From Candidatus Woesearchaeota archaeon (GTDB lineage Archaea; Nanobdellota; Nanobdellia; Woesearchaeales; UBA10216): 10,713 bases of DNA. Under the pieces are notes generated by a model. That model searched no databases and was not told the DNA's origin. It saw only the letters and a list, made by a program, of their open reading frames with translations. Below are positions 1,703 through 4,662 of the stretch, piece after piece. The position numbers were made by a program, and so were the translations under genes. Position 1 is the first letter of the stretch, and the number at the start of each line of letters is the position of its first letter. The stretch covers positions 1-10,713 of the forward strand of contig JACPBX010000027.1 of assembly GCA_016180085.1 (NCBI GenBank), given 5' to 3'.

Positions 1703-1939
1703 TTAACGTTTTTTCTTCAGAGCCATTTCAGCTCTATCAAGCGTCTTGTCGTAGGTTTTCATCAGCCTTAGCCCCAGCCAGATGATCAGGGTAACGCCTG
1801 CGCCCACAAAAAAGGGCTCTACATTAGAGGAGCTGTTTTTGGAAGTGCTTCTAGTTAAAAACGCAACTACGGTGGCTATAATAAAGACTGCTATCCAAAC
1901 CTTGCCCTTATTGGCGGCTATCATTGATTGAAAAGCCAT
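1703..1939 (-). CDS. Small membrane protein (two predicted TM helices, basic C-terminus), function unknown
   Basis: 78-aa ORF with two hydrophobic segments (VWIAVFIIATVVAFL; FFVGAGVTLIIWLGL). TATA-like TTTAAAAG on the minus strand at 1963-1970, 24-31 nt upstream of the ATG. Confidence 0.7.
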   Translation of the reverse strand: MAFQSMIAANKGKVWIAVFIIATVVAFLTRSTSKNSSSNVEPFFVGAGVTLIIWLGLRLMKTYDKTLDRAEMALKKKR

Positions 1940-2010: not shown

Positions 2011-2137
2011 ATCGGGCTCCGAAACTGGTAGACGAACCTGAAAGTTGCTGCGAAACCTTCCGGGTTCAAGCACAAGTCGAGCTGCGCTCGACTGTGCACA
2101 GTCGCAAGCTTGCGACTTGTGTCCCGGGCCCGGCGCA
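2011..2137 (+). pseudogene. tRNA-like element / tRNA relic with an insertion in the T-loop
   Basis: D-loop-like GAAACTGGTAGACG (2021-2034). T-arm CCGGG-TTCAAG[51 bp]T-CCCGG (2060-2127). TCGGGC (2012-2017) pairs with GCCCGG (2128-2133), and the element ends in GCA. It is 76 nt once the insert is removed. No canonical anticodon arm could be folded. Confidence 0.45.
2071..2121. repeat. 51-bp nested palindromic (double-hairpin) element
   Basis: Terminal inverted repeats CACAAGTCG (2071-2079) / CGACTTGTG (2113-2121). Internal hairpin AGTCGAGC-TGC-GCTCGACT (2075-2093). Perfect palindromes CGACTGTGCACAGTCG (2089-2104) and AGTCGCAAGCTTGCGACT (2100-2117). Confidence 0.9.
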
Positions 2138-2152
2138 CATAGCGTTTTCATT

Positions 2153-2905
2153 TCATCTCAAAAAATTCCACTCATCGGAACCATAGCGCTCTTTCGCCAA
2201 TTTTTCGGCGGCAGCTTTTTCTTCAGCTGTTATCGTGCCGAATTCAAACTCTTTCCCGCTTGTAAAGCCAGCAACCAGTGCGTCCTTCAGCTGTTGCTCT
2301 GTTACCTGCGGATTTATGTCCGTTACCGAGGTCACCCGCTGCTTGACATCCTCAATGAACTTGTCGGAAATCTTTTCCTTGGGCACCTTCAGCAGCGAGA
2401 ACATTGTTGCAACATCCAGCTTGTATAATATGGTGCCGTGCTGCAGCAAAATCCCGTTTCGTCTGGTTTGGGCGTTTCCCGAAATTTTCTTGCCAGCAGC
2501 GATTATGTCGTTTATGGGCTTGAACTCTGCAGGTATCCCTATTCTTCCAAGCGCATCAGCAATCCAGCCGCAGATTACATGGTAAGATTCGGTTATTCCT
2601 TTTGGAAACAAGGATTCCGGTGCAATCACGCTGTAGGTTATTTCGCCGTTGCCGTCATGGTAAACAGCTCCCCCGCCGGTCCTTCTCCTCACAAAGTCAA
2701 TACCCGTTTTTTTGCAGAGCGCTACATCAACTTCATCAGTCAGGCTTTGAAAGTAGCCAACAGAAACTGCGCTTGGCTTCCACTTATAGAACCTTATTGT
2801 CGGCAAAGCTTTCTTTGCCTTCACCGCGTCGCTTATGGCTTCGTCAAGGGCCATGTTCACCGAAGCACTGTTCGCTGTTAAGTCCAATACTCTCCAATTT
2901 GTCAT
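2153..2905 (-). CDS. lplA: Lipoate-protein ligase A, catalytic subunit (BPL_LplA_LipB fold)
   Basis: NMALDEA, VRRRTGGGAVYHD, KKISGNAQ and LQHGTILY motifs. At 250 aa it lacks the C-terminal domain. SD-like GAGGT lies upstream on the minus strand (~2915-2919). Confidence 0.92.
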   Translation of the reverse strand: MTNWRVLDLTANSASVNMALDEAISDAVKAKKALPTIRFYKWKPSAVSVGYFQSLTDEVDVALCKKTGIDFVRRRTGGGAVYHDGNGEITYSVIAPESLFPKGITESYHVICGWIADALGRIGIPAEFKPINDIIAAGKKISGNAQTRRNGILLQHGTILYKLDVATMFSLLKVPKEKISDKFIEDVKQRVTSVTDINPQVTEQQLKDALVAGFTSGKEFEFGTITAEEKAAAEKLAKERYGSDEWNFLR

Positions 2906-4509: not shown

Positions 4510-4534
4510 TGACCTTCTTTTTTAAAGAAGGTCA
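4510..4534. repeat. 11-bp perfect inverted repeat immediately 5' of tRNA-Glu
   Basis: TGACCTTCTTT (4510-4520) - TTT - AAAGAAGGTCA (4524-4534). Confidence 0.9.
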
Positions 4535-4535
4535 T

Positions 4536-4662
4536 GCCCCTGTAGTCTAGACCGGTCAAGGATGTGGGCCTCTCGTGACCCTTTTGCGCGGCAAAAGGTT
4601 CAATCCAAAAACGCGAGGGTTAGGGAACGCCCGAGACCCGGGTTCAAATCCCGGCGGGGGCA
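4536..4662 (+). tRNA. tRNA-Glu(CTC) with a 52-nt intron at canonical 37/38 (4576-4627); CCA not encoded
   Basis: Acceptor GCCCCTG/CGGGGGC + A73. D-stem GTCT/GGAT. Anticodon stem TGGGC/GCCCG, anticodon CTC at 4572-4574. T-arm CCGGG-TTCAAAT-CCCGG. BHB motif: CTCT (4570-4573) pairs with AGGG (4622-4625), with 3-nt bulges CGT and AAC, and the intron stem GACCCT/AGGGTT. Confidence 0.95.

Follow-up and report, generated by a model that had tools for sequence, protein, structure and literature searches.

A tRNA-shaped element beside an archaeal lipoate-protein ligase gene as a probable deletion remnant of a tRNA/partner cassette

Gene context and tRNA-like geometry

The window (the entire stretch of 10,713 nt analyzed here) constitutes contig C30 of a 998,598-bp, 45-contig and 82.8%-complete archaeal genome (G000), the host being a groundwater DPANN archaeon of ≈1 Mb whose DNA is present in groundwater metagenomes. 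Comparisons involved nine congeneric genomes (G001 to G009), giving ten genomes of the genus together with G000. The element under study (2011-2137) is located between a gene for 2-oxoacid dehydrogenase E2 (acyltransferase; 351-1682) and a gene for lipoate-protein ligase (LplA; 2153-2905, minus strand; Pfam PF21948, 2.4e-54). A small ORF of 78 aa without a Pfam match (1703-1939, minus strand) follows E2; a TATA-like box at 1961-1971 is placed 22 nt from the ATG (1939) of this ORF, corresponding to the spacing of a leaderless mRNA, and the ORF is absent from the equivalent position, between E2 and the tRNA cassette described below, in G008. The element is immediately preceded by an A-rich run on the plus strand (1993-2010), being a T-run on the minus strand, which may serve as an oligo-T terminator for minus-strand transcripts. 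Considering that the LplA stop codon (2153-2155) is only 15 nt away, the minus strand of the element lies between this stop codon and the T-run.

Removal of 2071-2121 restores a perfect T arm, as had been pointed out in a first-pass annotation of this DNA, with 2060-2064 (CCGGG) and 2123-2127 (CCCGG) forming a 5-bp stem as read from the sequence, and with 2065-2070 and 2122 together constituting the 7-nt loop TTCAAGT. This excision is exact and leaves no duplication of the flanks. The other tRNA-like traits listed in that annotation were recovered as well: a D-loop-like stretch (2020-2033) within a D region of the tRNA-Leu type, an acceptor-like stem of 6 bp (2012-2017 with 2128-2133, including one T-G pair), and a length of 76 nt for the joined form (2011-2137 minus the insert). 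A2011 and C2134, which correspond to positions 1 and 72, are left unpaired in the acceptor-like stem, and a G (2135) occupies the discriminator position, followed by the first trailer bases. A regular anticodon arm (5-bp stem with a 7-nt loop) is absent from its expected place, again in agreement with the annotation, and 2034-2059 contains only a 3-bp mini-hairpin (2035-2046) and the 3' strand of a variable arm. The sequence CTGAAAG (2038-2044) was ruled out as an anticodon loop with a GAA anticodon, as only two of the five stem pairs form.

Membership of the tRNA class was taken to require either a call by ARAGORN or an RF00005 score that reaches the gathering score (29 bits), and the element has neither. 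ARAGORN made no tRNA call on the window or on the joined 76-nt form; Rfam gave no match at gathering score for the element when the window was searched, and nothing tRNA-like at E≤10 over 1900-2250. The expectation that gene callers would miss the element was thus borne out both with and without the insert. A naturally insert-free copy of the element in G007 likewise has no tRNA score, compared with 52.1 bits for the intact tRNA that G009 has at this locus and 47.8 bits for that of G008. In its minimum-energy fold, the joined form has 2034-2039 paired with 2062-2067, whereby the T arm, which is perfect only after removal of 2071-2121, is lost; the folding energy is ordinary for the base composition (z = -0.9 against shuffles), and a cloverleaf-like pairing is 10 kcal/mol worse than the minimum-energy fold. 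When the ARAGORN threshold was lowered to 80%, a 'tRNA-Thr' on the minus strand and a 'tRNA-Phe' with an invented intron appeared, both of which were rejected as threshold artefacts, and an sR58 match of Rfam close to the element (2158-2179, 11.7 bits) was taken as chance.

In the rest of the window, Rfam identified only a tRNA-Glu gene with a canonical intron (4536-4662) and the start of an archaeal SSU rRNA (10617). The tRNA-Glu(CUC) gene, which scores 46 bits in Rfam and was missed by ARAGORN, contains an intron of ≈53 nt that centres on a TGACCC..GGGTCA-type hairpin with an A-rich tail after it. A second copy of this hairpin type is present directly before the gene (4510-4534), and the hairpin-plus-tail unit also occurs in several other tRNA introns and flanks of G000. 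Across the whole of this 83%-complete genome, the Rfam tRNA model retrieved only 15 tRNAs, missing the tRNA-Glu of the window, the tRNA(CAG) on C14 and the tRNA(UAA) on C13, and finding only weakly (36.1 bits) the tRNA(GAG) on C36, which also carries a T-loop intron. Because of such misses, the tRNA counts of this lineage are badly underestimated.

Parent cassette and loss of its central part

When the region 1940-2152 was searched against 40 relatives, the element split into two independent repeat classes, the 5' part (2000-2046) recurring at one to three places per genome and the insert at many places. Each of the three components (5' part, 3' part and insert) has homologues of its own in related genomes, so that the resemblance to a tRNA reflects descent and is more than chance.

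The 5' part, which will be referred to as the upstream element (UE; 2011-2047), is a diverged 5' part of a class II tRNA. Its pattern is present in eight of the ten genomes of the genus (one to three copies each) and in 0 of 15 genomes of other genera of the family. The additional copies in G000, on C13 and C14, are located 206-252 bp upstream of intact tRNAs. The corresponding cassette has a length of ≈400 bp and consists, in this order, of the A-rich run (the same run immediately precedes the 5' end of the UE in 10 of 11 intact cassettes), the UE, a TATA-like box, a spacer and a class II tRNA gene. The UE measures 43-50 nt, with a mini-hairpin of 3-4 bp replacing the anticodon arm, and differs from the 5' part of the tRNA at positions 1-2, in the acceptor 5' strand, and at positions 9-10. 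The TATA-like box, described as strong, is situated 19-24 nt beyond the UE; the spacer of 190-250 nt is poorly conserved, and the tRNA starts 193-252 nt after the UE. This tRNA is complete, with a long variable arm, G73 and a UAA, CAG, CAA or, once, GAA anticodon, and its D arm is 96-100% identical to that of E. coli tRNA-Leu genes over 22-25 nt. The GAA (phenylalanine) anticodon belongs to the cassette tRNA adjoining LplA in G001:C116, the long variable arm and G73 of which are retained, and the UE of that cassette has changed in step with the unusual D loop of its own tRNA.

In the 11 cassettes, the 3' end of the UE consists of 10-14 nt identical to the variable arm of its own tRNA, and in 10 of these the best alignment of the UE is with that same tRNA. 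The cassette consequently holds a direct repeat, the two copies being ≈300 bp apart. A scenario in which the UE is a resident 5' half displaced by an integrating element is not favoured, since all UEs share derived differences and yet track their own partner. A giant bulge-helix-bulge (BHB) splice joining the UE to the 3' part of the tRNA in intact cassettes was also considered, and no motif was seen by eye.

The homology to tRNA within the UE stops exactly 19-24 nt before the TATA-like box, conservation continues beyond the far side of this box as expected for a BRE, and the minus-strand T-run follows the opposite end of the UE. In view of these three features, the boundaries of the UE fit those of a small gene on the opposite strand, which would extend from the TATA/BRE side to the oligo-T run. 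The putative minus-strand UE RNA would be complementary to the D region and the variable arm of its own tRNA.

The E2-LplA gene pair also brackets the locus in G007:C15, G008:C4 and G009:C18. In G008 and G009 a UE, a spacer and an intact tRNA(UAA) are present between these two genes, and in G005:C19 and G001:C116 a UE, a spacer and a tRNA adjoin LplA; a cassette next to LplA is absent in G003, G004 and G002. The fused form, in which the UE runs straight into the variable-arm repeat, the T arm and the acceptor 3' strand, occurs in G000 (the window) and in G007.

The two repeat copies of G008 are 303 bp apart, and a deletion between them yields exactly the sequence of the window. The deletion junction corresponds to the variable-arm repeat (2048-2060), a sequence of which intact cassettes contain two copies of 10-14 nt. 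It is followed on the plus strand by what was once tRNA sequence, namely the 5' strand of the T stem (2060-2064) and positions 54-59 of the T loop (2065-2070), the T-loop letters being identical to those of the intact orthologous tRNA of G008. Beyond the insert, the plus-strand segment 2122-2137, comprising T-loop position 60 (2122), the T-stem 3' strand (2123-2127) and the acceptor 3' strand (2128-2134), aligns with the 3' ends of intact cassette tRNAs, all of which end in GGCGCA or GGCGCC. The TATA-like box, the spacer and tRNA positions 1 to ≈45 are missing, and only the UE and the 3' third of the tRNA are retained. Judged by this sequence organization, the element is a remnant of a tRNA/partner cassette and not an intact instance of it. 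The earlier suggestion of 'a decayed tRNA hit by a small element' consequently applies to the 3' third, a real tRNA remnant, and to the insert, a copy of a dispersed repeat, but not to the 5' two-thirds, which belong to a separate conserved element (the UE).

The age of the deletion can be approached by means of a contig from metagenome run X5, which matches 2000-2061, continues with 288 extra bases and then matches 2049-2638 without a gap. The 13 bases in which the two matches overlap represent the repeat. Over 2049-2638 the contig is 88% identical to the window, the corresponding value being at most 82% for any species representative and 80% for G007. This evidence consists of a single contig of 1,072 nt at a depth of 5.5, of which the 288 inner bases are known by length alone. 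Given that these extra bases are situated between matches overlapping at the repeat, the contig is interpreted as an undeleted cassette, with a double hairpin already in its T loop. With a relative closer than G007 apparently keeping the undeleted cassette, the deletion in G000 would be recent, and that in G007 is probably a second, independent event between the same repeats, a step that is well supported but not proven.

The fused elements of G000 and G007 have a common junction and differ at 5 of 72 alignable positions (≈93% identical) and by one 4-nt gap, compared with only 45-51% identity at four-fold degenerate sites in the genes on either side. A single, ancient deletion would imply, given this conservation, that purifying selection acts on the fused RNA; with a closer relative still undeleted, the conservation can be inherited from constrained parts of the parent cassette. 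The LplA tree is a star, and G000 and G007 may form a clade. A scan of metagenomes for the fusion junction produced two matches, both considered chance and located in high-G+C coding DNA. Over 2010-2070, the samples containing the G000 genome (runs X1 and X2) also include contigs with the G007-type fused element, with the 4-nt gap at 2030, an empty T loop and hairpins after the 3' end, so that two species with fused remnants share an aquifer.

The double-hairpin repeat in the T loop

The 51-bp insert, located between T-loop positions 59 and 60, is composed of two hairpins (2071-2096 and 2097-2121) with a folding energy of -26.9 kcal/mol (z = -4.7 against shuffles). Under a strict pattern, double hairpins of this type occupy at least 14 loci in G000, with 30 single-hairpin arms retrieved under a looser pattern, and copies are present in all nine congeners. 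The outer arms of the repeat are conserved, and its inner stems and loops vary between copies with pairing being kept. Copies follow genes, adjoin tRNA genes or reside within the canonical intron of a tRNA-Gly on C7, and they repeatedly occupy the loops of other hairpins, other double hairpins included; in G007:C20 and G001:C70, double hairpins in the loops of double hairpins generate nested palindromes that are two to three deep. Such nesting suggests that hairpin loops are the preferred target of the repeat. It thus has the properties of a repetitive double-hairpin element, with dispersed pairs in multiple copies and presence or absence at orthologous sites without target duplication.

Orthologous T loops illustrate this presence/absence. 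At the locus of the window, the T loop is empty in G008, G009 and G007 and filled in the X5 relative, from which it follows that insertion preceded deletion. In G001:C117, the 59/60 site is filled by a double hairpin, the tRNA(CAA) concerned being intact apart from one mismatched pair in the anticodon stem. The decayed tRNA of G005:C74 also has a double hairpin at this site, the first hairpin of which is identical to 2071-2096 at all 26 positions (26/26), and the orthologous T loop in G004:C59 is empty where those of G001:C117 and G005:C74 are filled. The decayed tRNA of G005:C74 (locus position 1444-1640) is related to the tRNA(GAG) of G000:C36, is located at the same locus as the intact cassettes of G001:C117 and G004:C59, and is directly followed at its 3' end by a second double hairpin.

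The T-loop site itself is an established position of archaeal tRNA introns, and in the archaeal intron motif the splice sites are located in two 3-nt bulges on either side of a 4-bp central helix (PMC4090602). The statement of the first-pass annotation that some archaea possess T-loop introns holds within this genus as well, true introns being present at 59/60 in sister tRNAs, and G000 encodes a splicing endonuclease on C40. In five short 59/60 introns that were scanned (those of G000:C14, with 27 nt, G000:C36, G004:C64, G005:C19 and G001:C116), the top BHB match restores the 7-nt loop. In these, the T stem acts as the outer helix (4/4 pairs), two to four of the four central-helix pairs form, and loop positions 54-57 pair with four intron bases located two bases before the 3' splice site. 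The same scan of three double-hairpin inserts (those of the window, G001:C117 and G005:C74) identified no loop-restoring motif, in line with the earlier observation that the insert closes as a flush helix lacking a BHB with 3-nt bulges. Based on its sequence and distribution, the insert is most likely a copy of the dispersed repeat and not a classical archaeal intron.

Origin of the element and comparison with known systems

The most probable reading is that a tRNA/partner cassette, the T loop of which already contained a double-hairpin repeat, recently underwent a deletion and left the element as its remnant. A 51-bp member of the repeat would first have inserted at the 59/60 site of the T loop. 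Slippage during replication, or recombination, between the variable-arm repeats would then have removed ≈300 bp, comprising the spacer along with the promoter-like boxes in it and the first ≈45 positions of the tRNA, anticodon arm included, and would have joined the UE to the variable-arm 3' strand, the T arm and the acceptor 3' strand. The remnant appears tRNA-like since the altered acceptor strand of the UE still pairs with the 3' strand of the tRNA. Both partners of the cassette seem to be disabled in the window, the tRNA lacking an anticodon and the partner gene a promoter. What results most likely does not function as a tRNA, and at most it is carried along as a passenger at the 3' end of transcripts of the lipoate ligase gene.

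A function related to the insert is conceivable but doubtful: since cassette tRNAs that are otherwise intact (those of G001:C117 and of the X5 relative) contain a double hairpin at 59/60, its presence there may be compatible with tRNA function, the double hairpin being either removed without a BHB or retained as an extra arm at the T-loop position that best tolerates insertions. One strand of the fused remnant might likewise still act as an RNA. If the insert were compatible with function, mobile hairpin DNA would be on its way to a novel type of tRNA intron or expansion.

As regards the minus strand, it is unlikely that the remnant specifies an extended antisense RNA which would be complementary to those paralogous long-arm tRNAs that remain, over their D region, variable arm, T arm and acceptor 3' strand, being derived from the 3' end of the lipoate ligase transcript in G000 or from a nearby TATA-like box in G007. 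The position of the element between the LplA stop codon and the first T-run is consistent with such a transcript, as are the conserved TATA/BRE side and the T-run of intact cassettes, which fit minus-strand transcription of the UE. The minus strand moreover folds stably (-61.9 kcal/mol, z = -4.6), and the 3' part of the element is identical at 25 of 29 positions to that of the tRNA(UAA) on C13. However, the cassette's own minus-strand promoter has been deleted, the UE part reaches only 13.6 against the remaining G000 tRNAs where intact UEs reach 18-23 against their partners, and the 4-nt deletion of G007 falls within the D-matching stretch.

The fused plus-strand RNA could alternatively be tRNA-like and functional despite its lack of an anticodon, with processing at the acceptor-like stem and a non-decoding role, e.g. 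that of a decoy which engages a synthetase or modification enzyme. Integrity of both the acceptor-like stem and the T arm in G000 and G007, along with the conservation of the element far above that of neutral sites, speaks for such an RNA. Nevertheless, we consider it quite improbable, and the tRNA-mimic ncRNA proposed in the first-pass annotation is not supported: neither a covariance model nor ARAGORN gives a score, and this holds for the G007 copy that lacks the insert as well; the fold of minimum energy differs from a cloverleaf and disrupts the T arm, positions A1 and C72 are unpaired, and no promoter of its own is evident, the sole upstream TATA-like box (1961-1971) being placed for the leaderless minus-strand ORF. 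In addition, the closer relative with an undeleted cassette allows the conservation to originate from the parent parts. Finally, a real and heavily interrupted tRNA, with the 51 bp as a 59/60 intron and the anticodon residing in a further intron or in trans, would agree with a known archaeal intron position (PMC4090602) that sister tRNAs use, with the encoded splicing endonuclease and with the many G000 tRNAs hidden from Rfam by introns (only 15 being found), but is very improbable indeed, as the insert boundaries have no BHB, nothing in 2034-2059 could form an anticodon arm, the 5' strand has the A1 and T2 of the UE and not the G1 and C2 of the tRNA, and G008, G009 and the X5 relative have the missing part in cis at their orthologous sites, which argues for a deletion rather than a split tRNA.

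The element, as a deletion remnant, is a fossil, yet an informative one. A built-in direct repeat makes the tRNA-plus-partner cassettes of this genus prone to a clean self-deletion of ≈300 bp, leaving tRNA-shaped chimeras which gene callers miss and which may be mistaken for new ncRNAs. The presence of a dispersed repeat at the exact T-loop position of true introns, also in intact-looking genes, bears on the origin of non-canonical tRNA introns, and genes with a double hairpin in the T loop provide concrete candidate substrates for the splicing endonuclease or another activity.

Among bacterial repeats, REP/REPIN doublets are mobilised by RAYT (Y1) transposases and consist of pairs of imperfect palindromes, foldable as one long hairpin, which occur in tens of copies mostly after genes. 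The repeat of the window similarly consists of paired imperfect palindromes, can also fold as one long hairpin, and is dispersed in tens of copies, mostly after genes. It differs in that no conserved tetranucleotide is seen beside the foot of its hairpins, and in that a Y1 transposase (PF01797) was not found in G000, the absence of which is not proven in a genome that is 82.8% complete.

With the archaeal 59/60 BHB introns (PMC4090602), the insert shares the point of insertion and an exact removal that restores the 7-nt T loop. Unlike these introns, it has neither the 4-bp central helix (between positions 54-57 and its own 3' end) nor the 3-nt bulges, and it is a copy of a repeat which mostly resides outside tRNA genes and which, in the window, sits in a gene devoid of an anticodon.

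Mitochondrial DNA of Allomyces contains double-hairpin elements (Paquin, Laforest and Lang 2000) which, as far as they and other repetitive hairpin-forming elements are discussed in PMC2800124, are likewise short, G+C-rich and multi-copy, consist of two adjacent hairpins and lack a flanking duplication. According to the same discussion, they are present or absent between close relatives and occur both in intergenic regions and inside RNA genes, as does the repeat of the window. The host differs, being an archaeal chromosome and not an organelle, and the sequences are unrelated. Set against the Allomyces elements as outlined in that source, the archaeal repeat is characterized by conserved outer arms with inner stems that vary while pairing is kept, and by copies that nest preferentially in hairpin loops, tRNA T loops included.
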